A stretch of DNA of 16,171 nucleotides from a virus (lineage: Duplodnaviria > Heunggongvirae > Uroviricota > Caudoviricetes). Position numbers and translations under genes: made by a program. The notes beneath the pieces are model-generated. The model had not been told where the DNA came from. It did no database searches and worked only from the letters and a program-made list of their open reading frames with translations. Below, piece by piece: positions 427 through 16,171 of this stretch (position 1 is its first letter; the number at the start of each line of letters is the position of its first letter). The DNA is taken from the IMG/VR virus record IMGVR_UViG_2778261694_000005, positions 1 through 16,171 of that record. One strand, written 5' to 3'.

Positions 427-465
427 TTATCATCTCCATAAAACAAAACCCGCAGTAGCGAGTTC

Positions 466-494
466 AGATAAAAGAAATCCCCGCGAGTGCGAGG
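466..494 (-). terminator. Candidate intrinsic terminator (leftward)
   Basis: Minus-strand hairpin CCUCGC-ACUC-GCGGGG (one G-U pair) followed by AUUUCUUUUAUC, just downstream of the 499-729 ORF. Confidence 0.4.
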
Positions 495-498
495 ATTG

Positions 499-729: not shown

Positions 730-745
730 TGTTAATTACTCCATG

Positions 746-1060: not shown

Positions 1061-1071
1061 AGGCGATACCG

Positions 1072-1554: not shown

Positions 1555-2018
1555 TTGCCATTCCTCTCAGTGGAGATCCCAGAAGAAACCTCAGCAACTA
1601 TCCTTGCCTCGCAGGCGTCGACAAAGCTACCAAACGACCCAAGATACTCATTCATGAATGTGGCTCTCCATTTTCCTCTTTGCTTGTGAAACCCAACTCC
1701 AGTAATGCCAGATGTGTTATTTTTCTGTTTTCTCTTGTTCAGAAGATTTATTTGCTGAGAGACGCACCTAAGGTTTTCTATTCGGTTATCACTCGGGTTT
1801 CCATTGATATGGTCTATTACCATCCCTTCTGGAATTTCACCGTGGTGAATTTCCCATACAACCCTATGCACGTATTCTCTTTTTCCGTTAATGCTTACAA
1901 TGCAATGGCCAGATTTTGTTTTTCCTCCTGCCTTATCACCAGCCCTCATCCATCGTGCTGGCTTAATCCGCCAAAAAAGCAATCCATCTTCATAACGAAA
2001 CAATTCAGACGCTTTCAT
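1551..2018 (-). CDS. HNH homing-type endonuclease (155 aa)
   Basis: Contains the HNH-3 type motif VIDHINGNPSDNRIENLR and a C-terminal NTSGITGVGFHKQRGKWRA segment (AP2-like DNA-binding region). Overlaps the recT stop by 14 nt. Confidence 0.75.
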   Translation of the reverse strand: MKASELFRYEDGLLFWRIKPARWMRAGDKAGGKTKSGHCIVSINGKREYVHRVVWEIHHGEIPEGMVIDHINGNPSDNRIENLRCVSQQINLLNKRKQKNNTSGITGVGFHKQRGKWRATFMNEYLGSFGSFVDACEARIVAEVSSGISTERNGK

Positions 2019-2913: not shown

Positions 2914-3221
2914 GCAGCTTCTCCAAAAATGTGTCTGCGTTTGAATATTGCGAAGGCATATTCAGCCTTAACTCTTTCGGTTATTGCATCCCAGAACCAT
3001 TCAGCGGCTTTTTCCTGATAGTTACAGTCATCATCTTCCAGCCAGTCGATAGCGTCCTTAGTGTGTTCATCTGGTTTATATGAGCGAAGCATTTCGCTTA
3101 TTGGGTCGCAACGTTTGCAGAGGCGATCAACTTCACTGTTGATTCGTTCGTAATCTTCATCAGTAAAACTTGCGATTATTTGCGATATTTCACGCTTATC
3201 ATTCAGAGTCAGAATCATCAT
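2910..3221 (-). CDS. Hypothetical acidic protein (103 aa)
   Basis: ATGATG start with AGGAG RBS 5 nt upstream; 4-nt overlap with the recT start. No recognisable motif. Confidence 0.55.
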   Translation of the reverse strand: MMILTLNDKREISQIIASFTDEDYERINSEVDRLCKRCDPISEMLRSYKPDEHTKDAIDWLEDDDCNYQEKAAEWFWDAITERVKAEYAFAIFKRRHIFGEAA

Positions 3222-3302
3222 CTTTCTCCTGTTCTTTGTGCTGATTGAGCATTTCTTTCATCTGACGAATGAATTCTTCGTCTGACCAGTTATCTGTAAA
3301 AC

Positions 3303-3455
3303 TCATTTCCTGCGATACCACGGAAGGTTGATAGCTGATTTCATCGCTTTATTTGCTTCAAGCCACATTTTTGAATCACCAATAAATCGGGCTATTACTG
3401 CTTTGTTCTGTGCAGCACGAAGCATCTGGTGATTAATGGCTATTTCATTGCGCAT
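3303..3455 (-). CDS. kil: Kil-like small protein (50 aa), putative host division inhibitor
   Basis: Sub-threshold ORF with a strong GGAGG RBS 5-9 nt upstream of the ATG at 3455. Contains IARFIGDSKM, which resembles the lambda Kil core as I recall it. Lies directly downstream of the cIII-like gene, as in lambda. Confidence 0.5.
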   Translation of the reverse strand: MRNEIAINHQMLRAAQNKAVIARFIGDSKMWLEANKAMKSAINLPWYRRK

Positions 3456-3574
3456 AACGCCTCCAGTTGTTTCTTTGCTGCTCTGATTAATTGTTTAACT
3501 CGGCGTGATAATTCAGATTCGTGCGGGTAGAAAGCGGACATGACGCCGCTACCCGCGAGCTGAAAGTGCATCAT
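3440..3574 (-). CDS. cIII: CIII-like small protein (44 aa), putative FtsH inhibitor
   Basis: The track ORF 3440-3679 is a read-through extension; the supported start is the ATGATG at 3574, which has an AAGGAG RBS 6 nt upstream. The product (MMHFQLAGSGVMSAFYPHESELSRRVKQLIRAAKKQLEALCAMK) has the amphipathic ES-L-R--K-L pattern of the lambda CIII central helix. Confidence 0.55.
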   Translation of the reverse strand: MMHFQLAGSGVMSAFYPHESELSRRVKQLIRAAKKQLEALCAMK

Positions 3575-3638
3575 GGGTAACTCCTTATATTTGATTGCAT
3601 AACGAAAACGCCTCGAGTGAAGCGTTATTGGTATGCAT

Positions 3639-3664
3639 ATAAAAAAGCCCTCACACTGGAGGGC
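3639..3664 (-). terminator. Intrinsic terminator (leftward) within the PL operon
   Basis: GCCCTC-ACACTG-GAGGGC hairpin (3647-3664) followed on the minus strand by a U6 tract (plus-strand AAAAAA 3641-3646). Confidence 0.6.
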
Positions 3665-3782
3665 AAAGAAGATTTCCAATAATCAGAACAAGTCGGCTCC
3701 TGTTTAGTTACGAGCGACATTGCTCCGTGTATTCACTCGTTGGAATGAATACACAGTGCAGTGTTTATTCTGTTGTTTATGC

Positions 3783-3809
3783 CAAAAATAAAGGCCGACT
3801 ATGCGGCCT
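3783..3809 (-). terminator. Intrinsic terminator (leftward) at the end of the 207-aa gene
   Basis: AGGCCG-ACTATG-CGGCCT hairpin (3792-3809) followed on the minus strand by UUUAUUUUUG; overlaps the gene stop codon. Confidence 0.55.
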
Positions 3810-4422
3810 CGGAAGGAAGTCCAATCATCTTATTCAAATCTTCTACCCGTAAAGCAGGAAGTGCTGCACTTGCTTTATCTGCTTCTTTTGGTAGCAACTC
3901 TTTGCTTTCAGGCCAGACCTCAATAAGTCGCTTAACTGTTGTGACTGAGTTCAAAGCAGCCCATACATTTGATTCGATATCCTTTTTCCTGGCTTCAAGT
4001 TTTTGTTGCAATTCGCAGATTTCATCAAACCTTTTTGTTATTTTGTGTTCTGCGTCAAACATGCATTTATCTTTGTTGGGGGTAGGGAGAAATATATCTT
4101 CACCGTTGCCGTCTTTTCCGTATGAATGCCAGCCAACCCTTCTTCCAGATACAGTCAGATAAATCGAACTTGAACTGACATCGCGTGAGTAAAATGAACA
4201 TCCAAGCTTTTGAAGTTCCTCACTTGCAGCCATTAACTTTGATGCCAGCTGGTCCACTTCTTCGGTTTTCTTTTTCCCGCCAAACGCAATAACTCTGGCG
4301 TCAAGTGCAAGCTGGTTCTTTAACTTTGTTACTTCTTCAAGTTCAGTGAAAACCCCAGACTTAATTAAAGCGTTACGAGCGATTTCCTCTTTCATTCTCG
4401 TAGTTAAGCGGATTGATGACAT
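3799..4422 (-). CDS. Hypothetical protein (207 aa from the RBS-supported start; track ORF extends to 4482)
   Basis: Long ORF immediately downstream of the N-like gene. The internal ATG at 4422 has a GAGG RBS about 9 nt upstream, whereas the ATG at 4482 lies inside N. Predicted helical/coiled-coil and charged; no motif recognised. Confidence 0.65.
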   Translation of the reverse strand: MSSIRLTTRMKEEIARNALIKSGVFTELEEVTKLKNQLALDARVIAFGGKKKTEEVDQLASKLMAASEELQKLGCSFYSRDVSSSSIYLTVSGRRVGWHSYGKDGNGEDIFLPTPNKDKCMFDAEHKITKRFDEICELQQKLEARKKDIESNVWAALNSVTTVKRLIEVWPESKELLPKEADKASAALPALRVEDLNKMIGLPSEAA

Positions 4423-4483
4423 ATTAATTCCTCTCAAATAAGTGGTTTGCTGCCTAATTTCATTTTCTGGCGACCAACACAAG

Positions 4484-4867
4484 TCACCTCGCCGTCAGTT
4501 GTTTTGATTTCCGGTAGCCTGCCGCGTAAATGGCTACGTTTGGAAGACATACACCAGTTTCTGGTTGCTTATGTCCAAACTCATTCGCGTACACAATGGC
4601 CGCTCGCTCCAGATTGCGTCTGTATTCTTTCTGTTGCCAGATCACGTCCTGTGCCATGAACTTAATTGGCTTAGCGTCTTCTATGCGCTCAGGCGTTTCG
4701 TGAGTACCTTTAGCCTGAATCTGCGCTCTGCTTAGAGTAGGGCGGTGTAATACTTCTGAACTTATTGCTTCTTCGCGGGCCAGTACGCCGTTAGCTAATG
4801 CCTTTGCCTTTAAACGCTCACGACGACGAGAACGTGAATTGCCTTTGAACTGAGTTCTGCGTGTCAT
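4484..4867 (-). CDS. N: N-like transcription antiterminator (127 aa)
   Basis: First gene after the about 240-nt leader leftward of OL/PL, with a strong AGGAGG RBS. The N-terminus carries an arginine-rich motif (RSRRRERLKAKALANG) like the lambda/P22 N ARM, and boxB-type hairpins occur at both nut positions. Confidence 0.7.
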   Translation of the reverse strand: MTRRTQFKGNSRSRRRERLKAKALANGVLAREEAISSEVLHRPTLSRAQIQAKGTHETPERIEDAKPIKFMAQDVIWQQKEYRRNLERAAIVYANEFGHKQPETGVCLPNVAIYAAGYRKSKQLTAR

Positions 4868-5032
4868 ATAGACCTCCTGATGAACTTTGGTGGTGTGGTA
4901 GGTGGGAGACCCATTTCGACCTGTTTCGGCCTACTTCAATTCGGCAATAGTCCCGCAGGCCTCGCCGCTTTACGTGCGGCATATTCCCGTCCATGAACCC
5001 TTCACCACACCCCAAAGTTCACTTTGGTTATT

Positions 5033-5047
5033 GCGCTTTGTCAGCGC
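5033..5047 (-). promoter_or_regulatory. nutL boxB RNA hairpin (GCGCUGACAAAGCGC)
   Basis: Minus-strand sequence GCGCTGACAAAGCGC: 5-bp stem with a GACAA pentaloop, in the PL leader upstream of N. I recall this as the P22-type boxB. No canonical boxA was found beside it. Confidence 0.6.
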
Positions 5048-5109
5048 CGTAGATTCATATTCGAATCGTTGTATATTCACCGCCCTGGTGAGTAGTGCGT
5101 CCTGCTGAT

Positions 5110-5200
5110 GGGTAAACTTTATCGGAATGATAAATTAATGGCAATAGCAAAATGATAAATTCTTTTGATTTTCAAATATCGTATTGATTCTTATGGTGTT
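5110..5200 (-). promoter_or_regulatory. Putative OL/PL operator-promoter region
   Basis: AT-rich region with repeated TGATAAATT motifs (5128-5136, 5153-5161) and an inverted half-site TTTATC (5118-5123). The same TGATAAA motif recurs in the cI-cro intergenic region. Exact -35/-10 elements could not be assigned. Confidence 0.45.
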
Positions 5201-5340
5201 TTATTTTGTTGTAGGAATTCGACAGGATAAATAAAGAGATTTGAGGGAGATCTGGATTGCGTGGTTTAGCAAGTTGTATCAATCAGTTTTTCAATAAATA
5301 CAATGAGTTATGTTTTTTTAGGTGGGGGGATCGTGAGGCA

Positions 5341-5365
5341 AAGAAAACCCGGCGCTGAGGCCGGG
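5341..5365 (-). terminator. Intrinsic terminator (leftward) closing the cI-proximal accessory locus
   Basis: Minus-strand CCCGGC-CUCAGC-GCCGGG hairpin followed by UUUUCUU, immediately after the 33-codon ORF and upstream of OL/PL. Confidence 0.6.
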
Positions 5366-5376
5366 TTATGTAGGCA

Positions 5377-5478
5377 TTATGCGGCTTTTTTGGTGTGTGC
5401 TGACGAGCGAGCCAGAATCTCGTTAATGAGAGATCTCAGGGTCATTGCATCTTTGTGCAGAGTGGACATGGTTTTCAT
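5377..5478 (-). CDS. Candidate small protein (33 aa, MKTMSTLHKDAMTLRSLINEILARSSAHTKKAA)
   Basis: Sub-threshold ORF with a GAGG RBS 7 nt upstream of the ATG at 5478, followed within 12 nt by an intrinsic terminator. Could instead be non-coding RNA or a chance ORF. Confidence 0.35.
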   Translation of the reverse strand: MKTMSTLHKDAMTLRSLINEILARSSAHTKKAA

Positions 5479-5547
5479 TGCGTTTCCTCGGTTTATTTTA
5501 TGGTACTAGCCTAGTTCAAATAGACTATATGAAATCTTGATTTACTA

Positions 5548-5928
5548 TTAAGGCCATTGGGTTGGTGGAAGATCGTGGGTTTTTATCTGCGTATTTGCTT
5601 CCACACATTTATCATAGTCTAATTTCTCTACAGCAAGCAATAGTGATTCAGCATACATCAATCCTTGTTTGATGTTCATAACATTTATGCTTGCACTTGC
5701 GGCATCCATATCCTTTGCTGTCTCTACCATGTGCTCAAAGCTTTGAGCAATAGAGTCAACACCGTTTTTCATCCTTGTAAACACTAATTTTAGCTCATCA
5801 AGGCTTGGATTCGTTAGATCATACATCCCATGCATTCCATGGGCTTCGAATAACTCTGACAACGATCTAAGGGCGAAGTTCACAGAATCAATAACTTGGT
5901 CGTACTTTTTCTTATCAAGATCATTCAT
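5548..5928 (-). CDS. Hypothetical protein (126 aa) in the rexAB-equivalent position, candidate lysogen-expressed accessory factor
   Basis: Clean ORF co-oriented with and immediately downstream of cI, between cI and OL/PL. Visibly AT-rich and AAA/AAT-rich codon usage compared with flanking phage genes. No transmembrane segment or known motif recognised. Confidence 0.7.
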   Translation of the reverse strand: MNDLDKKKYDQVIDSVNFALRSLSELFEAHGMHGMYDLTNPSLDELKLVFTRMKNGVDSIAQSFEHMVETAKDMDAASASINVMNIKQGLMYAESLLLAVEKLDYDKCVEANTQIKTHDLPPTQWP

Positions 5929-6045
5929 TAAAAATATAACCTTTTAACTATTTGATATTGCTGCATTTATATCAATATATGTATTTCACATATATCACCC
6001 AAACGTCTCTTCAGGTCACTGGCTATCAGCTATGTGACGATAAAG

Positions 6046-6750
6046 TCACGAACTTTTCAGCCACTCCCTTGCCTCGATGTCATCCAGATGGCGTGACTGC
6101 TTCAGAATACCAGCCACATACTCCACCTTTGCTACTTGATGATAAGGCAACGTTATTGGTCTGTGGTCCTGGTTGATGCTTGTAAACTGGTATTCTCCGT
6201 CTCTGTCATAGCCAAGAACTTTGATCATGTTGTGTCCTTCAACGGTTCTGACAAACACCTCATCACCCGGGAATACTTTGGTGTTAGGCTCAATGAGTAC
6301 ATATTCTCCTGATTTTATTCTAGGCCACATGCTGTCTCCTTTCACACGAAGGCCAAAGGCATCTGGATCATCGCTATAAATTTTGAGCCACCCATCGCGC
6401 TCTTCGGTCATCTCGATGGCACCATCAACACCAAGAATTGCCTCACCAACCACGCGCACTAACCCTTTTCTTACCTGACCGACAAAAGTTAAAGAATCTG
6501 AGCATGATGCAATTGGTGTTACATCATGTACCAAATCAAGCCACCCATTAGGTAACCCAAGTGCGGCTTCAAATTTTCTTGCTAGTTTATCCCCTATGTT
6601 TCGAGTGCTTTTTTCACCGGAGACTTGCGTGAGTTGAGAAGGGCTAACCCCAAGCTTATCGGCAAAGCTTGCATTAGTGTTACCCGCGATTTTTTTATGC
6701 TCATCTAGCAAAAACGCCAGATTCGATTTGCGAATATCTTTGTTTTCCAT
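6046..6750 (-). CDS. cI: CI-type prophage repressor (234 aa), HTH plus S24 LexA-like peptidase domain
   Basis: N-terminal HTH (FADKLGVSPSQLTQV) and C-terminal S24 autoprotease motif (VKGDSMWP with a downstream Lys). Divergent from the cro-like gene across an operator-containing spacer. Confidence 0.85.
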   Translation of the reverse strand: MENKDIRKSNLAFLLDEHKKIAGNTNASFADKLGVSPSQLTQVSGEKSTRNIGDKLARKFEAALGLPNGWLDLVHDVTPIASCSDSLTFVGQVRKGLVRVVGEAILGVDGAIEMTEERDGWLKIYSDDPDAFGLRVKGDSMWPRIKSGEYVLIEPNTKVFPGDEVFVRTVEGHNMIKVLGYDRDGEYQFTSINQDHRPITLPYHQVAKVEYVAGILKQSRHLDDIEAREWLKSS

Positions 6751-6863
6751 CTCACAATTTTCCCTCTATTTAGCAAATGGATAAATACGCAATATGATAA
6801 ATTTACATTGCGGCTGGTTTATCAAAATGGTAAAGTTATTCTGTATGATAAACGGAGGCACTA
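6751..6863. promoter_or_regulatory. OR / PRM-PR divergent promoter-operator region
   Basis: 113-bp spacer between divergent cI and cro carrying several copies of the TGATAAA motif (6794-6800, 6846-6852, GGATAAAT at 6778-6785, inverted TTTATCA at 6818-6824). Candidate -10 TATGAT at 6844-6849 upstream of cro. Confidence 0.5.
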
Positions 6864-7097
6864 ATGAGTAATGAACTACTACGCTGGCGAAAAGAGGCTT
6901 CTAGTGAGGAATGGAAGCGACTCGCCGCATTAGCGAAAACTTCAGTTGGCTATCTTGACCAGATTGCATATGGATTTCGAAGAGCTTCCCCTGATAAAGC
7001 GAATGCAATCGAAGAAGCTACTCGTAATTTCACGGCCTATAAACCCGTGAAAAAGGAAAACCTGGTGTTCGTATCGCGTAGAGCATCAGCAGCATAA
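6864..7097 (+). CDS. cro: Cro-like HTH repressor (77 aa)
   Basis: Small HTH protein with a GGAGG RBS, divergent from cI and first gene of the rightward operon. Confidence 0.75.
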   Translation: MSNELLRWRKEASSEEWKRLAALAKTSVGYLDQIAYGFRRASPDKANAIEEATRNFTAYKPVKKENLVFVSRRASAA

Positions 7098-7104
7098 GTA
7101 ACAC

Positions 7105-7150
7105 CGCTCTTTTCACAATGGACATTCGTCCTACGTCGCTGACAAAGCGA
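7105..7150 (+). promoter_or_regulatory. nutR (boxA CGCTCTTTT plus boxB UCGCUGACAAAGCGA)
   Basis: boxA-like CGCTCTTTT at 7105-7113 and a boxB hairpin TCGCT-GACAA-AGCGA at 7136-7150 between cro and cII. The loop is identical to that of the nutL boxB. Confidence 0.55.
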
Positions 7151-7235
7151 GCCCCAAGATATCTGACCAACTAAGGTCATATGCGTTTCCACGCATACCT
7201 TTCAACTAACTATTCACTATTGGAAATATTAAGAA

Positions 7236-7535
7236 ATGACACAAGCAAGTTACAGCAAGCCAACACAGCGAGAAATTGATCGCGCTGAAACTGATTTACT
7301 CATCAACCTGTCAACGCTTACCCAGCGCGGTCTGGCAAAGATGATTGGCTGTCATGAATCGAAGATAAGCAGAACGGACTGGAGATTTATTGCTTCGGTC
7401 TTGTGTGCTTTCGGAATGGCATCAGACATCAGTCCGATTAGCAGGGCTTTTAAGTATGCGCTTGATGGACTCACCAATAAAAAACGCCCGGTGTGCAAGA
7501 CCGAGCGTTCTGAACAAATCCAGATGGAGTTCTGA
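7236..7535 (+). CDS. cII: CII transcriptional activator (99 aa)
   Basis: The C-terminus (LTNKKRPVCKTERSEQIQMEF) matches the lambda CII C-terminus (ILTNKKRPAATERSEQIQMEF, from memory); positioned after cro/nutR. Confidence 0.85.
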   Translation: MTQASYSKPTQREIDRAETDLLINLSTLTQRGLAKMIGCHESKISRTDWRFIASVLCAFGMASDISPISRAFKYALDGLTNKKRPVCKTERSEQIQMEF

Positions 7536-7567
7536 GGTCATTACTGGATCTATCAACAGGAGTAATT

Positions 7568-7729
7568 ATGACAAAACGTCGTAAGAAATACCAGGAAAAA
7601 GAAGAGATTCGACACCCTGATTCACCTGAGGGATTAGTGGTAGCCGCAGCAAATAACAGGGCGTTCGCAGAGCGCCTTGTTGGTGTTTACAGACTAGCCA
7701 AAGCAGGAGTGAAACATGGGCGTCGTTAA
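7568..7729 (+). CDS. Small basic ORF (53 aa) between cII and the replication initiator
   Basis: AGGAG RBS 6-10 nt upstream of the ATG at 7568; basic N-terminus (MTKRRKKYQEKEE). Sub-threshold ORF; function unknown. Confidence 0.35.
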   Translation: MTKRRKKYQEKEEIRHPDSPEGLVVAAANNRAFAERLVGVYRLAKAGVKHGRR

Positions 7730-7778
7730 GTTAGCTGATTACAGGCATAACCCTGTACAACATCAGGAGGCATCCAGT

Positions 7779-8606
7779 ATGGGGTATGTCTCTATACACC
7801 GCCAGTTTATGGACAGCAGGCTCTATAAGGACTCTCAGGCAGTACATCTTTGGCTTCACTTAATCCTCAAGGCTAATCACGAATCTACTGTCGTCAATAC
7901 GGATATCGGTCCGATAACTGTTGATCGCGGTCAGATGATAACTGGACGCCCGTCGCTGGTCAGAGAAACATTCATCCCCGACAACAAAGTTCGGAGCTTA
8001 TTACGGACTTTTGAGTCGAAAGGGATGCTTAATATTTGCTCGATGGGGAAGAAATTTAGCCTGTTTACAATCGTTAAATATGACGATTTTCAGGCAAAAA
8101 ATTGTCCAACGGTTGTCCAACGGTTGTCCAACGCAAACACCAGTAATGGCGCGGCTCTCAGCGGAGATTGTCCAACGGTTGTCCAACGGTTGTCCATAAA
8201 CAATAATATAAATAATATCTCTAATACTGACGTATTAGAGAGTGCCACAGCAGACAAAAAGTCTGACAAGAAAAAACCTTCCGTTAGCTGTCAGGATGTT
8301 GTCGATGCTTACCACGAAATCCTTCCTGAAGCGCCAAGAATCCGCGCACTGAATGACAAGCGTAAAAACCAGATCCGAACGTTCTGGCGCAAAGCCGGAG
8401 TGATAACCCGCCAGCTTGACGGGCATGGGTTCACGATGCAGGACTGGAGAAATTATTTGAGCTACGTAGGCGAAAATTGCCGATGGATGTTCGAAGAACG
8501 CCCAAACCATCAACGCGGAACCGTCTGGCACAAAAAGGGATTTGATTTCCTGCTTAACGACAATACCTACCTGAAAGTTCGTGAGGGTGAACACGATGAC
8601 CGATAA
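7779..8606 (+). CDS. Replication initiation protein, O-like / replisome organizer (275 aa from the RBS-supported start; track ORF starts at 7716)
   Basis: The ATG at 7779 has an AGGAGG RBS 8 nt upstream. The gene contains the iteron array and AT-rich stretch internally, as lambda O contains ori, and directly precedes the DnaB-type helicase. Confidence 0.7.
   Translation: MGYVSIHRQFMDSRLYKDSQAVHLWLHLILKANHESTVVNTDIGPITVDRGQMITGRPSLVRETFIPDNKVRSLLRTFESKGMLNICSMGKKFSLFTIVKYDDFQAKNCPTVVQRLSNANTSNGAALSGDCPTVVQRLSINNNINNISNTDVLESATADKKSDKKKPSVSCQDVVDAYHEILPEAPRIRALNDKRKNQIRTFWRKAGVITRQLDGHGFTMQDWRNYLSYVGENCRWMFEERPNHQRGTVWHKKGFDFLLNDNTYLKVREGEHDDR
8102..8196. repeat. Origin iterons: two clusters of 3 tandem 11-bp repeats TTGTCCAACGG, followed by an AT-rich stretch
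   Basis: Direct repeats at 8102-8134 and 8168-8196 (last copy of each cluster degenerate) inside the O-like gene, followed by an AT-rich segment 8197-8240 (candidate unwinding element). Confidence 0.8.
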
Positions 8607-10032
8607 TTTTTATGCGCCGCCCCATAGCATCGAGGCAGAGCAGGCGGTGATTGGTGGATTGCTTCTGGATGATGACAGCAGTGAGCGCGTCCAGAAAGTT
8701 CTGGCGATGCTGAAGCCCGATTCATTTTACAGCCGACCACACAAAATCCTTTTCGAAGAAATAACCAGAATGCACTGGGAGCAAAAGCCAGTAGATGGCC
8801 TGACGCTTTTCGATGAACTGGAGCGTAAATCGTTAACGGTGTCTGTTGGCGGTTTTGCTTATATCGCTGAGATCGCAAAGAACACGCCAAGCGCAGCAAA
8901 CATCGTTGCCTATGCAATGCAGGTTCGTGAAACCGCAATGGAACGCTACGCCATCAACCGCATGACTGAAGCGACGGAATTGCTCTATTCCCGCAACGGA
9001 ATGACTGCGACGCAGAAGTACGAAGCTATTCAGTCGATTTTCACGCAACTGACAGACCATGCAAAAACCGGATCGCGTCGCGGCCTTCGTTCATTTGGTG
9101 AGGTCATGGAAGACTGGGTTAGCGACCTTGAGAAGAGATTTGACCCATCAGGAGAACAACGGGGAATGAGCACAGGGATCCCATCGTTGGACAGGATGCT
9201 GTCACCGAAAGGTCTGGTGAAAGGCTCTCTGTTTGTCATTGGCGCTCGCCCTAAGATGGGGAAAACGACGCTATACAGCCAGATGGCAATCAATTGCGCA
9301 GTGCATGAGAAAAAGCCCGCATTGATGTTCAGCCTTGAAATGCCAGGTGATCAGATACTGGAAAAACTGGTAGGGCAGAAGTCTGGTGTTAACCCGAATA
9401 TTTTTTACCTTCCGGCGACAAATGACGCCGATGACGGCTATCAGGGTGATTACGATGGTGACTTCAACAGGGCGATAGAAACAGCCAATCGCTTGAGTGA
9501 AATAGACCTGCTTTACATCGACGACACGCCGGGATTATCTCTGGCTCAAATCGTCAGCGAAAGCCGTCGAATCAAGCGAGAAAAAGGATGTGTTGGCATG
9601 ATTCTGGTCGATTACCTGACACTAATGACCGCTGAGAAGGCCGATCGCAACGACCTTGCTTACGGCATGATCACCAAAGGACTGAAGAACCTTGCCAAAG
9701 AGCTTGATTGCGTTGTTGTGCTTCTGACGCAGCTTAACCGCGCACTGGAAAGCAGAACCAATAAACGCCCATTACCAAGTGACTCACGAGATACAGGGCA
9801 GATTGAACAGGATTGCGATTATTGGGTCGGGATCCATCGTGAAGGCGCTTTTGATGACAGTGTTCCACCTGGTGAAACTGAACTAATCCTTCGTCTCAAT
9901 CGTCATGGCAATACCGGCACGGTGTATTGCATTCAGGCAAATGGCGCTATTTATGACACAGACCAACAGTCTGCTGAAATGCGCCGACGTGAACGCGAGG
10001 AACCGCAGTCCAAGAAGAAAGGAGGATTCTGA
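8596..10032 (+). CDS. Replicative DNA helicase, DnaB family (478 aa from the ATG at 8596)
   Basis: Walker A motif GARPKMGKTT and DnaB-like N- and C-terminal architecture; position equivalent to P22 gene 12. The track start at 8581 lacks an RBS, whereas the ATG at 8596 follows GAGGGTG. Confidence 0.85.
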   Translation: MTDNFYAPPHSIEAEQAVIGGLLLDDDSSERVQKVLAMLKPDSFYSRPHKILFEEITRMHWEQKPVDGLTLFDELERKSLTVSVGGFAYIAEIAKNTPSAANIVAYAMQVRETAMERYAINRMTEATELLYSRNGMTATQKYEAIQSIFTQLTDHAKTGSRRGLRSFGEVMEDWVSDLEKRFDPSGEQRGMSTGIPSLDRMLSPKGLVKGSLFVIGARPKMGKTTLYSQMAINCAVHEKKPALMFSLEMPGDQILEKLVGQKSGVNPNIFYLPATNDADDGYQGDYDGDFNRAIETANRLSEIDLLYIDDTPGLSLAQIVSESRRIKREKGCVGMILVDYLTLMTAEKADRNDLAYGMITKGLKNLAKELDCVVVLLTQLNRALESRTNKRPLPSDSRDTGQIEQDCDYWVGIHREGAFDDSVPPGETELILRLNRHGNTGTVYCIQANGAIYDTDQQSAEMRRREREEPQSKKKGGF

Positions 10033-10060
10033 TGACCATCTACATCACTGAGCTAATAAC

Positions 10061-10092
10061 AGGCCTGCTGGTAATCGCAGGCCTTTTTATTT
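10061..10092 (+). terminator. Intrinsic terminator (tR2-like) after the replication genes
   Basis: AGGCCTGC-TGGTAATC-GCAGGCCT hairpin (8-bp stem) followed by TTTTTATTT. Confidence 0.6.
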
Positions 10093-10108
10093 GGGGGAGA
10101 GGGAAGTC

Positions 10109-10549
10109 ATGAAAAAACTAACCTTTGAAATTCGATCTCCAGCACATCAGCAAAACGCTATTCACGCAGTACAGCAAATTCTTCCAGACCCAACCAAACC
10201 AATCGTAGTAACCATTCAGGAACGCAACCGCAGCTTAGACCAAAACCGAAAGCTTTGGGCTTGCCTTGGTGACGTCTCTCGTCAGGTTGAATGGCATGGT
10301 CGCTGGCTGGATGCAGAAAGCTGGAAGTGTGTGTTTACCGCAGCATTAAAGCAGCAGGACGTTGTTCCTAACCTTGCCGGGAATGGCTTTGTGGTAATAG
10401 GCCAGTCAACCAGCAGGATGCGTGTAAGCGAATTTGCGGAGCTATTAGAGCTTATACAGGCATTCGGTACAGAGCGTGGCGTTAAGTGGTCAGACGAAGC
10501 GCGACTGGCTCTGGAGTGGAAAGCGAGATGGGGAGATCGGGCAGCATGA
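10109..10549 (+). CDS. ninB: NinB (Orf) recombination mediator (146 aa)
   Basis: Protein starting [55 protein letters not shown], essentially identical to lambda NinB as recalled. The track start at 10091 is an upstream TTG extension; the ATG at 10109 has a GGGAGAGGGAAG RBS. Confidence 0.9.
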
Positions 10550-10719
10550 TGCGATGTTATCGGTGCGGTGAATGCAAAGAAGATAACCGCTTCCGACCAA
10601 ATCAACCTTACTGGAATCGATGGTGTCTCCGATGTGAAAGAACACCAACAGGGGTGTTACCACTACCGCAGGAAAAGGAGGACGTGTGGCGAGACAGCGA
10701 CGAAGTATCACCGACATAA
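10546..10719 (+). CDS. ninD: NinD (57 aa), small Cys-rich protein
   Basis: Starts at the ATGATG overlapping the ninB stop (ATGA). Sequence [16 protein letters not shown]... with C-x2-C...C-x2-C, as in lambda NinD. Confidence 0.8.
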
Positions 10720-10868
10720 TCTGCGAAAACTGCAAATACCTTCCAACGAAACGCTCCAGAAATAAACGCAAGCCAATCCCAAAAGAATCTGACGTAAAAA
10801 CCTTCAACTACACGGCTCACCTGTGGGATATCCGGTGGCTAAGACATCGTGCGAGGAATACAAGGTGA
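10686..10868 (+). CDS. ninE: NinE (60 aa)
   Basis: GTG start; product [59 protein letters not shown], near-identical to lambda NinE from memory. Confidence 0.85.
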
Positions 10869-11035
10869 TTGACCCAAATCGAAGTTACGAACAAGAAAGC
10901 GTCGAGCTGGCTTTAACGTGCGCTAATTGCGGTCAGAAGCTGCATGTGCTGTAAGTTCACGTGTGTGAGCACTGCTGCGCAGAACTGATGAGCGATCCGA
11001 ATAGCTCGATGCACGAGGAAGAAGACGATGGCTAA
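10865..11035 (+). pseudogene. ninF: ninF interrupted by an in-frame TAA (29-codon N-terminal ORF 10865-10954; remaining frame continues to 11035)
   Basis: GTG start overlapping the ninE stop. Translation [29 protein letters not shown]-stop, then the same frame reads [26 protein letters not shown] and ends in the ATGgcTAA overlap with ninG. Lambda NinF as recalled has Glu where the TAA occurs here. Confidence 0.5.
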
Positions 11036-11639
11036 ACCAGCGCGAAGACGATGTAAAAACGATGAATGTCGGGAATGGTTTCACCCTGCATTCGCCAATC
11101 AGTGGTGGTGCTCTCCAGAGTGTGGAACCAAGATAGCACTCGAACGACGAAGCAAAGAACGCGAAAAAGCGGAAAAGGCAGCAGAGAAGAAACGACGACG
11201 AGAGGAGCAGAAACAGAAAGATAAACTTAAGATTCGAAAACTCGCCTTAAAGCCCCGCAGTTACTGGATTAAACAAGCCCAACAAGCCGTAAACGCCTTC
11301 ATCAGAGAAAGAGACCGCGACTTACCATGTATCTCGTGCGGAACGCTCACGTCTGCTCAGTGGGATGCCGGACATTACCGGACAACTGCTGCGGCACCTC
11401 AACTCCGATTTGATGAACGCAATATTCACAAGCAATGCGTGGTGTGCAACCAGCACAAAAGCGGAAATCTCGTTCCGTATCGCGTCGAACTGATTAGCCG
11501 CATCGGGCAGGAAGCAGTAGACGAAATCGAATCAAACCATAACCGCCATCGCTGGACTATCGAAGAGTGCAAGGCGATTAAGGCAGAGTACCAACGGAAA
11601 CTCAAAGACCTGCGAAATAGCAGAAGTGAGGCCGCATGA
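11028..11639 (+). CDS. ninG: NinG (Rap) recombination endonuclease (203 aa)
   Basis: Cys-rich N-terminus ([24 protein letters not shown]) and overall sequence as lambda NinG; overlaps ninF and ninH with typical 4-nt overlaps. Confidence 0.9.
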
Positions 11640-11842
11640 CGTTCTCAGTAAAAACCATTCCAGACATGCTCGTTGAAGCATACGGAAACCAGACAGAAGT
11701 AGCACGCAGACTGAAATGTAGTCGCGGTACGGTCAGAAAATACGTTGATGATAAAGACGGGAAAATGCACGCCATCGTCAACGACGTTCTCATGGTTCAT
11801 CGCGGATGGAGTGAAAGAGATGCGCTATTACGAAAAAATTGA
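11636..11842 (+). CDS. ninH: NinH (68 aa)
   Basis: [37 protein letters not shown]... (Fis-like HTH), as lambda NinH. Confidence 0.85.
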
Positions 11843-12491
11843 TGGCAGCAAATACCGAAATATTTTGGTAGTTGGCGATCTGCACGGATGCTACACGAAC
11901 CTGATGAAAAAACTGGAGACGATAGGATTCGACACCAAAAAAGACCTGCTTATCTCAGTGGGCGATTTGGTTGATCGCGGTACAGAGAACGTCGAATGCC
12001 TGGAATTAATCACATTCCCCTGGTTCAGAGCTGTACGTGGAAACCATGAGCAAATGATGATTGATGGCTTATCAGAGCGTGGAAACGTTAATCACTGGCT
12101 GCTTAATGGCGGTGGCTGGTTCTTTAATCTCGATTACGACAAAGAAATTCTGGCTAAAGCTCTTGCCCATAAAGCAGATGAACTTCCGTTAATCATCGAA
12201 CTGGTGAGCAAAGATAAAAAATATGTCATCTGCCACGCCGATTATCCTTGTGACGAATACGAATTTGGAAAGCCAGTTGATCATCAGCAGGTAATCTGGA
12301 ACCGCGAACGAATCAGCAACTCACAAAACGGGATCGTGAAAGAAATTAAAGGCGCGGACACGTTCATCTTTGGTCATACGCCAGCAGTGAAACCACTCAA
12401 ATTTGCCAACCAGATGTATATCGATACCGGCGCAGTGTTCTGCGGAAATCTCACATTGATTCAGGTACAGGGAGAAGGCGCGTGGGCATAA
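11820..12491 (+). CDS. ninI: Ser/Thr protein phosphatase, lambda PPase / NinI-like (223 aa from the ATG at 11820)
   Basis: Metallophosphatase motifs GDLHGC, GDLVDRG and GNHE. Matches the lambda phosphatase starting [15 protein letters not shown]; the track start at 11745 is an upstream extension overlapping ninH. Confidence 0.9.
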
Positions 12492-13000
12492 GAGAACTAA
12501 ACCTCACCAAAGAACAGCATGAGTGGCTGAATGGCTGGCTTGAACTGTGGGGCGCATGGGTTTATTCAGGTCGTCTGGAAAAGCGCATGAGCAGCGTAAT
12601 AGCGAAGTTCATGGAGAGCGTAGAGCCGGGAAGAGTTATGACAAGGCCAATGTGCAATGATGATGATGGAATGTTGATTTCTCAGGTCGTCGATTCCGTC
12701 ATGTACATTGACAAGAAAGCCTTTGGCATCCTCCTCAGCTACTACGCTCATGGTTCATCTAAGCGAGCAATTGCATCCTACTATCACGCGACTGCAAAGC
12801 CACGCAAGATGTGTGGACGTGGTGGCGAGGGATGTAGAAAACCTTCACTGGCAACCTGTAGAAACGAAATTGACGACATCCTGAAAGCGTCGTTATTTGT
12901 TTTGTACCAGCCAATGCAAAATGCTTTCAAAATGCGTAAACGTGTTGAGAAAGTTAAGCATGTTGCTGTTAAAAGCCTTGACATGCAATTATCCATTTAG
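12482..13000 (+). CDS. Q: Late-gene antiterminator Q-like protein (172 aa)
   Basis: GTG start with a GGAGAAGG RBS, overlapping the ninI stop. Occupies the Q position immediately upstream of the PR'-like promoter and short terminated leader, and contains a Cys cluster ([10 protein letters not shown]...C). Not lambda Q by sequence; assignment is positional. Confidence 0.6.
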
Positions 13001-13007
13001 CCATAAT
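12978..13007 (+). promoter_or_regulatory. Candidate late promoter PR' (TTGACA - 18 bp - CATAAT)
   Basis: Perfect -35 TTGACA at 12978-12983 and -10 CATAAT at 13002-13007, straddling the Q stop codon as PR' does in lambdoid phages. Confidence 0.5.
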
Positions 13008-13017
13008 TAGAAGGTAA

Positions 13018-13059
13018 GCTGCCGTTAGTGACTCTTAAGTTGCAACGGTGGCTTTTTTT
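13018..13059 (+). terminator. Candidate tR' intrinsic terminator just downstream of PR'
   Basis: 9-bp stem (GCTGCCGTT / AACGGTGGC, two G-U pairs) with a 17-nt loop, followed by T7 (13053-13059). Would yield a short terminated leader unless modified by Q. Confidence 0.5.
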
Positions 13060-13063
13060 ATTT

Positions 13064-13138
13064 GGGTCAGTCGTATAAAGGTCATTACGGAAGGCTGTTA
13101 ACCTTCTTATCGTGGTTCGAGCCCACGCTGTCCCGCCA
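13064..13138 (+). tRNA. tRNA-Asn(GUU)-like gene, 75 nt, with one acceptor-stem mismatch
   Basis: Manual fold: acceptor GGGTCAG/CTGTCCC (T4:T69 mismatch), U8, A14, G18G19, anticodon stem GAAGG/CCTTC with loop CTGTTAA (anticodon GTT), T-arm CGTGG-TTCGAGC-CCACG, discriminator G, encoded CCA. Confidence 0.55.
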
Positions 13139-13143
13139 AACAT

Positions 13144-13219
13144 GCTGGTTTAGCTCCAATGGTAGAGCAGTCGCCTTGTAAGCGAATGGGTAGCGGTTCA
13201 AGTCCGTTAACCAGCACCA
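13144..13219 (+). tRNA. tRNA-Thr(UGU) gene, 76 nt
   Basis: Manual fold: acceptor GCTGGTT/AACCAGC, D-arm GCTC-CAATGGTA-GAGC, anticodon loop CTTGTAA (anticodon TGT), T-arm AGCGG-TTCAAGT-CCGTT, discriminator A, encoded CCA. Confidence 0.75.
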
Positions 13220-13300
13220 TAACTGAGCCGTAGCCACTGGCTATCCTGAATTCATCAGTGATAGTTACGCTGCGGCCTTCTACACATGATCTTCGTGAAA

Positions 13301-13342
13301 GCGGGTGGCAGGAGGTCGCGCTAACAACCTCCTGCCGTTTTG
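13301..13342 (+). terminator. GC-rich hairpin / weak terminator downstream of the tRNAs
   Basis: 10-bp stem GGCAGGAGGT / ACCTCCTGCC (13307-13336) with a 10-nt loop, followed by GTTTTG; flanking GCGGG/CCCGTGC could extend the structure. Confidence 0.4.
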
Positions 13343-13461
13343 CCCGTGCATATCGGTCACGAACAAATCTGATTACTAAACACAGTAGCCTGGATTTGTT
13401 CTATCAGTAATCGACCTTATTACTAATTAAATAGAGCAAATCCCCTTATTGGGGGTAAGAC

Positions 13462-13785
13462 ATGAAGATGCCAGAAAAACATGACCTGTTAGCCGCCATT
13501 CTCGCGGCAAAGGAACAAGGCATCGGGGCAATCCTTGCGTTTGCAATGGCGTACCTTCGCGGCAGATATAATGGCGGTGCGTTTACAAAAACAGTAATCG
13601 ACGCAACGATGTGCGCCATTATCGCCTGGTTCATTCGTGACCTTCTCGACTTCGCCGGACTAAGTAGCAATCTCGCTTATATAACGAGCGTGTTCATCGG
13701 CTACATCGGTACTGACACGATTTGTTCGCTTATCAAACGCTTCGCTGCTAAAAAAGCCGGAGTAGAAGATGGTGGAAATCAATAA
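13462..13785 (+). CDS. S: Holin S, class I, lambda-type dual start (107 aa)
   Basis: [45 protein letters not shown]... is near-identical to lambda S, including the Met1/Met3 dual-start (antiholin/holin) arrangement. Confidence 0.95.
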
Positions 13786-14245
13786 TCAACGTAAGGCGTT
13801 CCTCGATATGCTGGCGTGGTCAGAGGGAACTGATAACGGACGGCAGAAAACCAGAAATCATGGTTATGACGTCATTGTAGGCGGAGAGCTATTCACTGAT
13901 TACTCCGATCACCCTCGCAAACTTGTCACGCTAAACCCCAAACTCAAATCAACAGCAGCAGGACGTTACCAGCTTCTTTCCCGTTGGTGGGATGCTTACC
14001 GTAAGCAGCTTGGCCTGAAAGACTTCTCTCCCAAAAGCCAGGATGCAGTGGCATTGCAGCAGATTAAAGAGCGTGGCGCTTTACCGATGATTGATCGTGG
14101 TGATATTCGTCAGGCTATTGATCGTTGCAGTAATATTTGGGCTTCATTGCCCGGTGCTGGCTACGGTCAGTATGAACACAAGATCGATAGTCTGATTGCC
14201 AAATTCAAAGAAGCTGGCGGGGTGGTTAATGAAACTTCGCTATAA
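13769..14245 (+). CDS. R: Endolysin R, lytic transglycosylase (158 aa)
   Basis: [49 protein letters not shown]... matches lambda R; the C-terminal residues differ from lambda. Overlaps the S stop. Confidence 0.95.
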
Positions 14246-14690
14246 GCTGGTTATTTCTGCTTTCCTCCTGACTTTATTCGGTTCTCTCGTCTGGTCAGCT
14301 AATCATTACCACAATAAAGCCATTGAATACAAAAAACAGCGCGACGAAAACGCTATGGCATTAGATTCGGCTATGGCGACGATCTCTGATATGCAGAAGC
14401 GTCAACGTGACGTAGCAGAACTCGATGCCAGATATACAAAGGAGCTTGCTGATGCTAACGCGACTATCGAAAGTCTCCGTGCTGATGTTTCTGCTGGTCG
14501 TAAGCGCCTGCAAGTCGCCGCCACCTGTGCAAAGTCAACGACCGGAGCCAGCGGCATGGGCGATGGAGAAAGCCCAGGACTTACAGCAGATGCTGAACTC
14601 AATTATTACCGTCTCCGAAGTGGAATCGACAAGATAACCGCGCAGGTTAACTACCTGCAGGAGTACATCAGGACGCAATGCCTGAAATAA
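14229..14690 (+). CDS. Rz: Spanin inner-membrane subunit Rz (153 aa from the ATG at 14229)
   Basis: N-terminal transmembrane segment ([19 protein letters not shown]) and coiled-coil periplasmic domain; start overlaps the R 3' end. The track start at 14196 is an upstream extension. Only the central part resembles lambda Rz. Confidence 0.85.
   Translation: MKLRYKLVISAFLLTLFGSLVWSANHYHNKAIEYKKQRDENAMALDSAMATISDMQKRQRDVAELDARYTKELADANATIESLRADVSAGRKRLQVAATCAKSTTGASGMGDGESPGLTADAELNYYRLRSGIDKITAQVNYLQEYIRTQCLK
14452..14637 (+). CDS. Rz1: Spanin outer-membrane lipoprotein Rz1 (61 aa), embedded in Rz in the +1 frame
   Basis: Strong AAAGGAG RBS 7 nt upstream of the ATG at 14452. Signal peptide with lipobox VVSAC followed by a Pro-rich mature region (KSPPPVQSQRPEP), entirely inside Rz. 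Confidence 0.8.
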   Translation: MLTRLSKVSVLMFLLVVSACKSPPPVQSQRPEPAAWAMEKAQDLQQMLNSIITVSEVESTR

Positions 14691-14721
14691 ATTTTTTTGC
14701 AAATCACAAAGTCAATTTAAT

Positions 14722-14746
14722 GAGCCTCGCGGTGCGGGGCTTTTTT
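14722..14746 (+). terminator. Intrinsic terminator after the lysis cassette
   Basis: AGCCTCGC-GGT-GCGGGGCT hairpin (8-bp stem, one G-U pair) followed by TTTTT. Confidence 0.6.
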
Positions 14747-14890
14747 ATATCTGAATTTCACAGCGCATCTCACGCGCATATTAACGAGAGCCTTTCAGTA
14801 AGCGAGCCTGAGAAATGCCGTTATAGGTGGCGACCTCTCTCGGGCGGCTTTTCTGTGAGACAGGCTCACTTTCTAAAAGGTAAAGACGCT

Positions 14891-15409
14891 ATGAATCATC
14901 AATTGGCTAATCTCGATTTCCGGGACATGGTTGTTGTTTCTGGTGATCGCGTGATCACAACCTCCCGCAAGGTAGCAGCTTACTTCGACAAGCAGCATCA
15001 CCACATCATTCAGAAAATCGAAAAGCTAGACTGTTCGGATGAATTTCTAACCAGCAACTTTTCGCGGGTTACCTATGAACACAAGGGTAATCAGTATGTT
15101 GAATATGAAATTTCCAAAGACGGCGCGATGTACATCATCATGTCGTTTACCGGCAAAAAAGCTGCCGCCATCAAAGAGGCGTTTATCAAAGCATTTAATT
15201 GGATGCGTGACAGGCTGATGGAGATGGCTCACTCATACCAAAGAGAGCACAACGAGTTAATGCTGGAGTTCATGAAGGAAAAGGATGTTGCCAGTATGTC
15301 AGGACGCTTGCTGAACCGCTGGGGCAGGATCAAAAAACCGCAACTCATAGCAAGAATCGAAAGGCTTGAGCAGCAGGCGCAAATATCGATCCCCGGACTG
15401 CCAAAGTGA
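14891..15409 (+). CDS. rha: Rha-family phage regulatory protein (172 aa from the ATG at 14891)
   Basis: N-terminal region VVVSGDRVITTSRKVAAYFDKQHHHIIQKIEKL fits the Rha-domain signature as I recall it. The track ORF start at 14678 reads through the terminator; the ATG at 14891 follows an AAAGG RBS. Confidence 0.7.
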   Translation: MNHQLANLDFRDMVVVSGDRVITTSRKVAAYFDKQHHHIIQKIEKLDCSDEFLTSNFSRVTYEHKGNQYVEYEISKDGAMYIIMSFTGKKAAAIKEAFIKAFNWMRDRLMEMAHSYQREHNELMLEFMKEKDVASMSGRLLNRWGRIKKPQLIARIERLEQQAQISIPGLPK

Positions 15410-15820
15410 CCATTCCAAAGCCCATCTACGGGTGGGCTTGATAATGAAACCGTGATTTACATCCCCACAATCCGGGTATGTAAAAGATAGTTCAGGCGAG
15501 AACAGATTTAACTAAATCTGTGCACCACCAGTTGCGGCAGTACAGCGAAACAACCCAAGCCAGAAAGTGGGGAAATAACACTGGCAGCCACTGAAAGATG
15601 AACCTCCTGCCTTATGGCAAAAAAGATTCTTTGTGGTGGCGGACTGATGGAAAGACATCGGTTATTGCAGAGGCCATTCAATGAGTGGTCTCGACAATGG
15701 CTTATACCCTGCACGGGATAACTTAACTGATATCCCTTTTAACGGATAAACGGAGCCAATAATGGCAGAGAATGTCGGCATTATGGCAGTGAAATTTGGA
15801 TAAATCGGAGATTAGTACAT

Positions 15821-16171
15821 ATGCCGCCACGAATCCCAAAAGCCTGCCGTGTTCGCGGTTGCCGCCATACCACCACAGATCCGTCAGGCTATTGTGAAAG
15901 CCACAAAAGCGAAGGCTGGAAGCAATACAAGCCAGGCCAGTCCCGGCACCAGCGCGGTTATGGTTCGAAATGGGATGTTATCCGTGAACGTGTGCTCAAG
16001 CGTGACAAAGGCCTGTGTCAGTTATGTCTGCGTGCCGGTGTGGTGCGTGAGGCGAAAACCGTTGACCACATCATTCCTAAAGCGCATGGCGGCACAGATG
16101 CCGACAGCAATCTGCAGAGCCTGTGCTGGCCGTGCCATAAGGCGAAGACGGCCCGTGAACGGCTAAAGTGA
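15821..16171 (+). CDS. HNH endonuclease (116 aa), packaging-associated
   Basis: HNH motif with zinc-binding Cys pairs (CQLC ... DHIIPKAHGG ... CWPCH) and a GGAG RBS. Position just upstream of where terminase genes are expected, as for HNH proteins that assist cos cleavage in HK97-like phages. Confidence 0.8.
   Translation: MPPRIPKACRVRGCRHTTTDPSGYCESHKSEGWKQYKPGQSRHQRGYGSKWDVIRERVLKRDKGLCQLCLRAGVVREAKTVDHIIPKAHGGTDADSNLQSLCWPCHKAKTARERLK

Follow-up and report, generated by a model that had tools for sequence, protein, structure and literature searches.

We analyzed a stretch of 16,171 nucleotides (nt) from a virus of the Caudoviricetes (IMG/VR record IMGVR_UViG_2778261694_000005, positions 1 to 16,171; this whole stretch is called the window hereafter). 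Judged by its gene content, the window ends within the late region of a lambdoid prophage, and our subject is a cassette located there, at approximately positions 14691 to 15410, in which an intrinsic terminator is followed by a structured leader of about 125 nt and a single gene, rha, all on the + strand. The terminator (14722 to 14748) constitutes the 5' end of the cassette and begins 32 nt past the stop codon (14688 to 14690) of the lysis gene Rz. It shows the G+C-rich stem-loop and U run of a rho-independent terminator, its stem of 9 base pairs (bp), six of them G-C, occupying 14722 to 14742 and being followed by the T run in TTTTTTAT, and it ranked first in the terminator scan. Its stem pairs display compensatory changes in relatives, and the records of phages HK106 and epsilon34 annotate a rho-independent terminator at the corresponding place. 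An earlier reading made from the letters alone (the sequence-only reading) had posited a terminator closing the lysis cassette ahead of the Rha gene, and the top match of the scan is exactly such an element. The leader occupies 14749 to 14890 and is non-coding over these 142 nt.

The gene runs from the ATG at 14891 to the TGA at 15409 and encodes 172 amino acids (aa). As the sequence-only reading had proposed, the product is a Rha-domain protein: aa 23 to 106 (coded by 14957 to 15208) match Pfam PF09669 Phage_pRha above the gathering score (E value of 1e-23; 84.1 bits against a cutoff of 29.9; profile positions 1 to 90 of 91). A second domain, ORF11CD3 (Pfam PF10549; E value of 9e-24; 83.9 bits against a cutoff of 25; whole profile, 1 to 54), covers aa 115 to 168 (coded by 15233 to 15394), and the protein also matches PHROG 518, "Rha-like transcriptional regulator," at 5.5e-80. 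The protein search retrieved 334 database homologues; nearly all of the listed ones share the two-domain architecture, and where a name is given, it is "Rha family transcriptional regulator." An AlphaFold2 model (mean predicted local distance difference test score of 86) has an alpha/beta domain at residues 10 to 83, followed by long helices at 89 to 134 and 138 to 163. Most likely, the N-terminal domain would bind DNA, while the helical C-terminal domain would pair with itself or with a partner.

The closest characterized counterpart is rha of phage P22. The two proteins are 45% identical and colinear over their full length (178 columns; E value of 1e-53), and P22 rha lies after gene 15/Rz1 and before orf80 and gene 3. 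Judged by colinear similarity and genomic position, the window gene is the orthologue of P22 rha, and its place after the lysis genes is the canonical one of that gene rather than an oddity. The P22-like phages Gally, APC_JM3.2 and JEP4 carry a module 96 to 99% identical to positions 14723 to 15771 of the window. The gene itself is thus ordinary: both it and its slot were already known, and its annotation appears in hundreds of genomes. The rha genes of phi80 and P22 harm lytic growth when integration host factor (IHF) is absent (PMC4936722, citing Mozola & Friedman 1985 and Henthorn & Friedman 1995), so that the link between Rha-type genes and IHF-dependent interference drawn in the sequence-only reading has the literature on these two homologues behind it. 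An IHF site in the leader was considered and rejected, the only two matches to WATCAANNNNTTR in the window lying near position 5900. We likewise rejected a longer, 243-aa open reading frame (ORF) that starts in frame at 14678. Of the 39 readable homologous leaders, 31 break this frame with a stop codon, 24 of them within 8 codons of the ATG, and the 243-codon frame is an accident of the window sequence.

Three side observations concern this gene family. The P22 record (L008, positions 1076 to 1144) places the rha start 23 codons ahead of the ATG that stands behind the conserved leader and is aligned with those of all other family members; this annotated start is probably too early. The window Rha has 100% identical counterparts in Shimwellia pseudoproteus DSM 3038 and in a "Bacillota" metagenome-assembled genome, there on a contig of 3.2 kb that looks to be a piece of enterobacterial phage placed in the wrong bin.

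The leader has a conserved fold, specific to the sense strand, that consists of a long hairpin and two covarying long-range pairings. The long, irregular hairpin (14790 to 14881, + strand) is built from five helices: P0 (14790 to 14802 with 14869 to 14881), P1 (14804 to 14810, GAGCCUG, with 14861 to 14867, CAGGCUC), P2 (14811 to 14815 with 14850 to 14854), P3 (14817 to 14822 with 14843 to 14848) and P4 (14825 to 14828 with 14833 to 14836), which is capped by a GGCG loop. A small conserved hairpin, H2 (14763 to 14777, + strand; GCGC/AUCUCAC/GCGC), precedes it, and its stem reads GCGU/ACGC in phage RothD. The minimum free energy fold of the window leader had a z score of −2.94, and one and the same architecture was obtained for 40 of 40 homologous leaders, each folded separately.

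A MAFFT alignment of the 40 leaders was one column off in the 3' strand of P1 for P22-type sequences. For this reason we relied instead on alignment-free tests and on a covariance model that was built from four close sequences and then used to align the 40 homologues. In the resulting alignment, 95.9% of the pair cells held standard pairs, and double changes were seen at 30 of 33 pairs. The covariation score was 0.583, compared to 0.218 with partners shuffled (none of 500 shuffles reached the real score) and to 0.05 to 0.11 with partners slid by one to three columns. The + strand was the more stable one in 33 of 40 homologues and G-U pairs were frequent, indicating that the structure belongs to the mRNA and not to the DNA. 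Few unpaired nucleotides of the leader are invariant.

The sequence-only reading had pointed to small inverted repeats in this region, such as GTGAG-N5-CTCAC. That repeat does exist, at 14856 to 14870, but it is not the relevant pairing, since the true repeats are much larger: it is made up of one strand of a long-range pairing (PK-A, below) and part of the 3' strand of P1. By our estimate it occurs at about chance level (approximately 0.8 expected in 145 nt with spacers of 3 to 8 nt), and it is lost in relatives such as E212 (GUGCG...CUCAU).

Two long-range complementarities, which we called PK-A and PK-B, surfaced through a repeat finder; all four of their strands lie on the + strand. PK-A joins UCUCAC in the loop of H2 (14768 to 14773) to GUGAGA on the 3' side of the internal loop between P2 and P1 (14855 to 14860, overlapping GTGAG). 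PK-B joins CGAGAG, the six bases just 5' of P0 (14785 to 14790), to CUCUCG in the 3' bulge between P4 and P3 (14837 to 14842). In relatives, the corresponding strands read UCGUAC/GUACGA, UUCACC/GGUGAA, CCGAAU/AUUCGG and AUGCCC/GGGCA for PK-A and CCCGAG/CUCGGG, CACAGAG/CUCUGUG, CGUCGAA/UUCGACG, CACCGA/UCGGUG and GCAUAGAG/CUCUAUGC for PK-B. Since the register of both pairings shifts between subfamilies, they were not scored by alignment pair counts; the energy of each leader's own duplex was compared instead with the energies obtained after permuting partners among the 40 sequences. The mean energy of the own duplexes was −8.79 kcal/mol against −6.91 kcal/mol permuted for PK-A and −10.67 against −7.58 kcal/mol for PK-B, and none of 2,000 permutations was as low in either case. 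PK-B reached −7 kcal/mol or better in 39 of 40 homologues, while swapping partners between PK-A and PK-B, as a control, gave no signal. The 24 (PK-A) and 26 (PK-B) distinct sequence pairs indicate that many independent double changes have occurred. P0 and P1 together comprise 18 bp, and P2, P3 and PK-B together comprise 17 to 19 bp. With arms of equal length the hairpin could fold in half, and simple geometric reasoning suggests a folded-back arrangement in which PK-A would sit at the hinge and PK-B would close the open end beside the ribosome-binding site.

The ribosome-binding site is itself part of the fold. The Shine-Dalgarno core AAAGGU (14876 to 14881, + strand), which is followed by the ATG 9 nt on, forms the 3' strand of P0a, the helix that closes the hairpin. 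Each of its bases had a predicted unpaired probability of at most 0.11 in the ensemble for the window, and the mean over the 40 homologues was 0.19. All four pairs of P0a showed double changes, so that the Shine-Dalgarno sequence is not only paired but paired in a covarying helix, and on this ground we read the leader as limiting or gating translation of the downstream gene. Positions 14888 to 14893, comprising the start codon and the three preceding bases, were mostly paired in the same ensemble as well (unpaired probability of 0.01 to 0.2).

On an abundant late mRNA, the folded leader would hold the ribosome-binding site closed, so that little of a DNA-binding and potentially harmful protein would be made, or would be made only once the RNA had been opened or cut. 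Candidate openers are RNase III, a protein, a small molecule or another RNA. RNase III is an obvious candidate because the leader offers a near-continuous helix of approximately 29 bp with an asymmetric loop. Such gating would suit DNA-binding or nuclease-type proteins encoded on a very abundant late transcript, and it agrees with older evidence that Rha is harmful to the phage when mis-regulated.

The same helix, whose asymmetric internal loop makes it resemble RNase III substrates, is open to another reading, in which the leader serves mainly in the processing or stability of the RNA, either as an RNase III site or as a self-cleaving RNA, where it would sever the long late transcript, set the 5' end of the cargo mRNA and affect translation only secondarily. 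RNase III sites are known in the intergenic hairpins of T7 (R1.1) and in the lambda N leader. A compact fold with two pseudoknots is typical of small ribozymes, and the element lies at a gene boundary within a very long operon, as a processing site might. Against this, ribozyme families of Rfam gave no match, few unpaired nucleotides are invariant, and a pure processing site would have no need for covariation in the helix that holds the Shine-Dalgarno sequence. We consider it unlikely that processing is the main role of the leader.

Control of translation by the leader would concern more than Rha, since the gene behind it is exchanged. Mapping of breakpoints between the window and nine related phages showed that homology to relatives runs from 14723 to 14895-14898, that is, to the third codon of rha, restarts at 15404 to 15411 near the stop codon and continues to 15771. 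The cargo is exchanged exactly between start and stop codon. In the same slot, HK620 carries a protein with KilA-N and ORF11CD3 domains plus hkbL, E212 carries a KilA-N protein, HK106 and epsilon34 carry a T5orf172/MUG113 (GIY-YIG-type) protein, and Dewey carries an HNH_3 endonuclease gene followed by a KilA-N gene. Louie has, right after the terminator and without a leader, a protein with a Tad2-like (Thoeris anti-defence 2) domain (L005, positions 1670 to 2137; Pfam, 9.3e-27), which implies that the slot can carry anti-defence cargo. In ST64T the slot is empty, the right flank beginning about 30 nt after Rz. Variable presence of the Rha-type gene, as surmised in the sequence-only reading, is thus borne out by both empty and differently filled slots. 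Taken together, the breakpoints and the empty slot of ST64T indicate that the unit gained or lost comprises terminator, leader and gene, at roughly 14691 to 15410.

A wider sample, 111 IMG/VR contigs found with a short leader pattern, gave the same picture. The gene after the leader encoded a Rha protein in approximately 76 of them, a KilA-N protein in approximately 12 and a T5orf172 protein in approximately 11, the rest encoding ANT proteins or proteins of unknown family. These domains belong to the Bro network, a set of domain-shuffling proteins of phages and satellites built from Bro-N, KilA-N, ANT/KilAC, Rha, ORF11CD3 and T5orf172 (PMC10111431), and the leader precedes Bro-network cargo genes wherever the family is assignable. 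The gene before the leader was Rz-like in 87 of 106 contigs. Elsewhere, the leader and a Rha gene stand behind a tail-completion gene or a virion structural gene (L046, positions 1286 to 1792; L042, positions 1070 to 1510), showing that the cassette also inserts at other places among late genes. One contig of Rosenbergiella nectarea (L035) has two leader copies, at 1006 to 1114 and 1869 to 1979, about 860 nt apart, which suggests tandem cassettes.

The leader is widespread. It was found in 181 phage records at 75 to 100% identity, followed by genes annotated as Rha, KilA-N, "DNA-binding" or GIY-YIG, the hosts of these phages being Escherichia, Salmonella, Klebsiella, Enterobacter, Hafnia, Pantoea and Actinobacillus. 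It is present in 954 of 5,426 complete E. coli genomes, or roughly one in six, and it precedes Rha homologues in prophages of Gilliamella, Xenorhabdus, Providencia, Morganella, Erwinia, Rosenbergiella and others. The covariance model recovered it in 38 of the 39 genome and phage loci searched. Rfam 15 yielded no credible match, even in a permissive search (E values up to 10; 241-nt query): the best matches were microRNA-precursor models, isrJ and rimP, at 13 to 26 bits against gathering scores of 37 to 86, and C4, isrK and the ribozyme and riboswitch families gave no match to the leader. It is not marked in any of the twelve annotated phage records, or in the one region of an E. coli chromosome, that we examined, and a targeted full-text literature search returned nothing relevant, an absence that is no proof of its being undescribed. 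The leader appears to be a new, undescribed structured RNA.

We then considered how the cassette is transcribed. The sequence-only reading had taken the Rha gene for a moron-type insertion, a separate unit with a transcript of its own. A true moron in this place would be an autonomous unit with a promoter in its leader, active in the prophage without need of the late operon and of benefit to the lysogen. Several features recommend this interpretation: the whole cassette is either there or missing between conserved genes, at one site in close relatives; it occurs behind other late genes (tail-completion and virion structural), as a mobile insert would; its terminator insulates it from upstream transcription; and the slot gene of Louie with the Tad2-like domain is labelled a moron in its record. 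The remaining hallmarks of a moron, namely, its own promoter, its own terminator, expression from the prophage and a distinct base composition, were not found. A consensus scan of 14400 to 16000 detected no sigma-70-like promoter, where 1.8 were expected, and the 40 aligned leaders share no conserved −35/−10-like hexamers. The terminator scan placed the only terminator upstream of rha and none downstream; the hairpin at 15418 to 15439 lacks a U run and is a feature of the flank, which ST64T has as well, with its slot empty. The G+C content of the cassette (0.44 to 0.47) resembles that of its flanks (0.46 to 0.50), and the composition profile has no anomaly.

Indirect evidence on expression comes from Gally, whose rha module is 99% identical to the window across 14723 to 15657. 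When E. coli LF82 lysogens were studied by RNA sequencing (RNA-seq), only the repressor among the Gally genes was expressed at least 5-fold over the prophage background, and rha showed no response to growth in macrophages (PMC9928086). Autonomous expression of the module is not apparent in these data, and P22 rha has been described as a late-operon gene (PMC4936722). Neither an independent transcript nor a moron in the strict sense is supported; the cassette is moron-like only in being optional, and we regard an autonomous, lysogen-serving unit as improbable. A LexA box was also considered and rejected by eye, as CTGTGAGACAG has the form CTGT-N3-ACAG and not CTGT-N8-ACAG.

The idea that the leader is only a boundary sequence at the DNA level, a homology patch for cargo-swapping recombination with incidental hairpins, would account for exchange exactly at the ends of the conserved flanks and has a parallel in the boundary sequences annotated at module junctions of related phages (e.g., bsq7 in Sf6), but a homology patch needs identity, whereas 30 of 33 pairs persist through double substitutions and PK-A and PK-B persist with 24 to 26 different sequence pairs, and the G-U pairs and the stability bias (33 of 40) favor the transcribed strand, so that we give it hardly any credence.

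Our preferred interpretation is therefore that of a P22-type rha cassette with Q-dependent late transcription and leader-limited translation, which as a whole we hold to be probable. The rha gene would have no promoter of its own and would be transcribed only by Q-modified polymerase of the late operon that passes the terminator; it would thus be expressed late in lytic growth and be silent in the lysogen. The role of the terminator would then be to stop any unmodified polymerase arriving from the lysis region, so that neither the cassette nor the structural genes are expressed by read-through.

Some points weigh against this interpretation. With regard to transcription, a weak or activator-dependent promoter may be present in 14749 to 14790, as the scan addressed the sigma-70 consensus, and the RNA-seq data concern a different strain (LF82), grown in LB medium and in macrophages. 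With regard to the fold, the structure itself guided the covariance-model alignment, sequence relatedness is not corrected for in the permutation tests, and PK-A and PK-B might form an alternative conformer rather than coexist with P0 and P1. With regard to translation, the unpaired probability of the region from −14 to −6 was 0.45, which is no lower than for other genes of the window, P0a is A-U rich and lies at the foot of the hairpin, and it is the pairing as such that suggests repression by the leader. Finally, fold searches with the Rha protein gave no significant match, and the notion that Rha binds DNA comes from family lore and a weak winged-helix resemblance.

The neighboring genes place the cassette within the late region. 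Upstream, a lambda-type holin gene (13462 to 13785) and an endolysin gene (13769 to 14245) are followed by the i-spanin gene Rz (14196 to 14690, + strand), the final gene of the lysis cassette (Pfam Phage_lysis, 1e-38; PHROG 13, Rz-like spanin, 3.8e-69), whose start codon is probably the ATG at 14229. A putative o-spanin gene, Rz1 (14452 to 14637, + strand), lies inside Rz in a different frame; its translation (MLTRLSKVSVLMFLLVVSAC...) has a lipobox-like LVVSAC and a proline-rich stretch, and our assignment is by analogy to Sf6 and P22, in whose records an embedded Rz1 is annotated. Over the end of Rz and the terminator (14675 to 14743), a sub-threshold Rfam match to isrJ, a Salmonella prophage small RNA, was observed (16.6 bits against a gathering score of 37; E value of 0.77); it is probably due to chance, although isrJ is itself prophage-borne. 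Downstream, an HNH endonuclease gene (15821 to 16171, + strand; Pfam HNH, 2.3e-16) opens the packaging module and runs to the end of the window. The closest E. coli prophage, in strain CP53, is 97% identical across 14400 to 16171 and continues with a P27-family small terminase, a large terminase, a portal, an HK97-type protease and capsid genes. The position between lysis cassette and packaging genes given in the sequence-only reading is therefore correct, and the prophage combines lambda-like lysis genes with HK97-like packaging genes.

Between rha and the HNH gene lies the right flank, or trailer (15411 to 15771, + strand), which according to the breakpoint maps is outside the cassette and common to phages whatever their cargo; 206 phage records match it. 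We rejected the possibility that these 360 bp are a conserved non-coding RNA, as they represent a normal right flank with gene remnants. Besides the hairpin at 15418 to 15439, the flank holds a 35-aa remnant ORF (15614 to 15721) that corresponds to the N terminus of ST64T Orf-118 (30 of 33 residues identical). At its end, the start of a DUF2560/orf80-type gene (15763 to 15804) is shortened to 13 codons because P22-type genes have been replaced by the HNH/terminase module. The two stumps indicate that this module exchange again cut just behind a start codon. A perfect 8-bp inverted repeat, CAGATTTA-AC-TAAATCTG, was noted at 15503 to 15520, within a segment (15453 to 15525) that is absent from ST64T.

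As a gene, rha adds nothing new here, having been known in this place since P22 was sequenced, and the interest lies in its leader, which sits in some of the best-studied phage genomes, those of P22, HK620, Sf6 relatives and Stx-converting phages. Bro-network cargo proteins are often toxic. If the RNA gates their translation, it offers a handle on the timing and the cause of their synthesis, accounts for the exchange of unrelated cargo within a single expression context and provides a testable route into the old puzzle of Rha and IHF. More speculatively, the leader could represent a new class of cis-regulatory RNA, a folded-back hairpin of about 125 nt held by two long-range locks that acts as a metabolite-, protein- or nuclease-responsive switch for late translation of the Bro network; we advance this only tentatively. 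If this is true, such a switch RNA would be carried by P22, HK620 and Stx phages and by about one E. coli genome in six, and it could help to explain the 30-year-old observation that Rha is harmful in IHF-deficient hosts. For annotation, cassettes of this kind should not be named morons from their position alone.

Among known systems, the rha genes of P22 (orf201) and phi80 are the nearest. Their products join a Rha domain to an ORF11CD3 tail as in the window, although the sequences have diverged (P22, 45% identity). P22 rha also directly follows Rz/Rz1 and precedes packaging genes, and it has a leader homologous to the one described here, with the same fold. Unlike in P22, where orf80 and gene 3 follow, the cassette in the window is joined to an HK97-type HNH/terminase module.

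The Bro network, reportedly described by Iyer, Koonin and Aravind in 2002, provides the wider family. The window Rha is a typical product of such shuffling, its Rha N-domain being combined with an ORF11CD3 C-domain, and hkbK of HK620 attaches the same tail to a KilA-N domain in the same slot. Genes for Rha, KilA-N, ANT and T5orf172 proteins are all served by one type of leader. Members of the network range in function from antirepressors and repressors to nuclease-like proteins.

Morons of lambdoid phages, which are said to have been characterized by Juhala et al. in 2000 and Cumby et al. in 2012, resemble the window rha in being extra genes between conserved late genes that are absent in close relatives. 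The window gene differs from them in that no promoter was found, the terminator stands in front, the composition is ordinary and, in the transcriptome of the Gally lysogen, no Gally gene but the repressor exceeded the prophage background.

Finally, phage leaders that hold the ribosome-binding site of a regulator or antirepressor gene are known from the lambda N leader, with its RNase III site, from c4-icd-ant of P1/P7 and from IsrK-anrP of Gifsy-1. The rha leader shares with them a ribosome-binding site embedded in RNA structure and, by our interpretation, expression that would need an additional event. It has no homology to them in sequence or structure, its fold is much larger, and it contains two long-range pairings. 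C4 and isrK are mentioned in the literature on the Bro network (PMC10111431). In general terms, the rha leader is one of the structured 5' leaders in which a ribosome-binding site is held.

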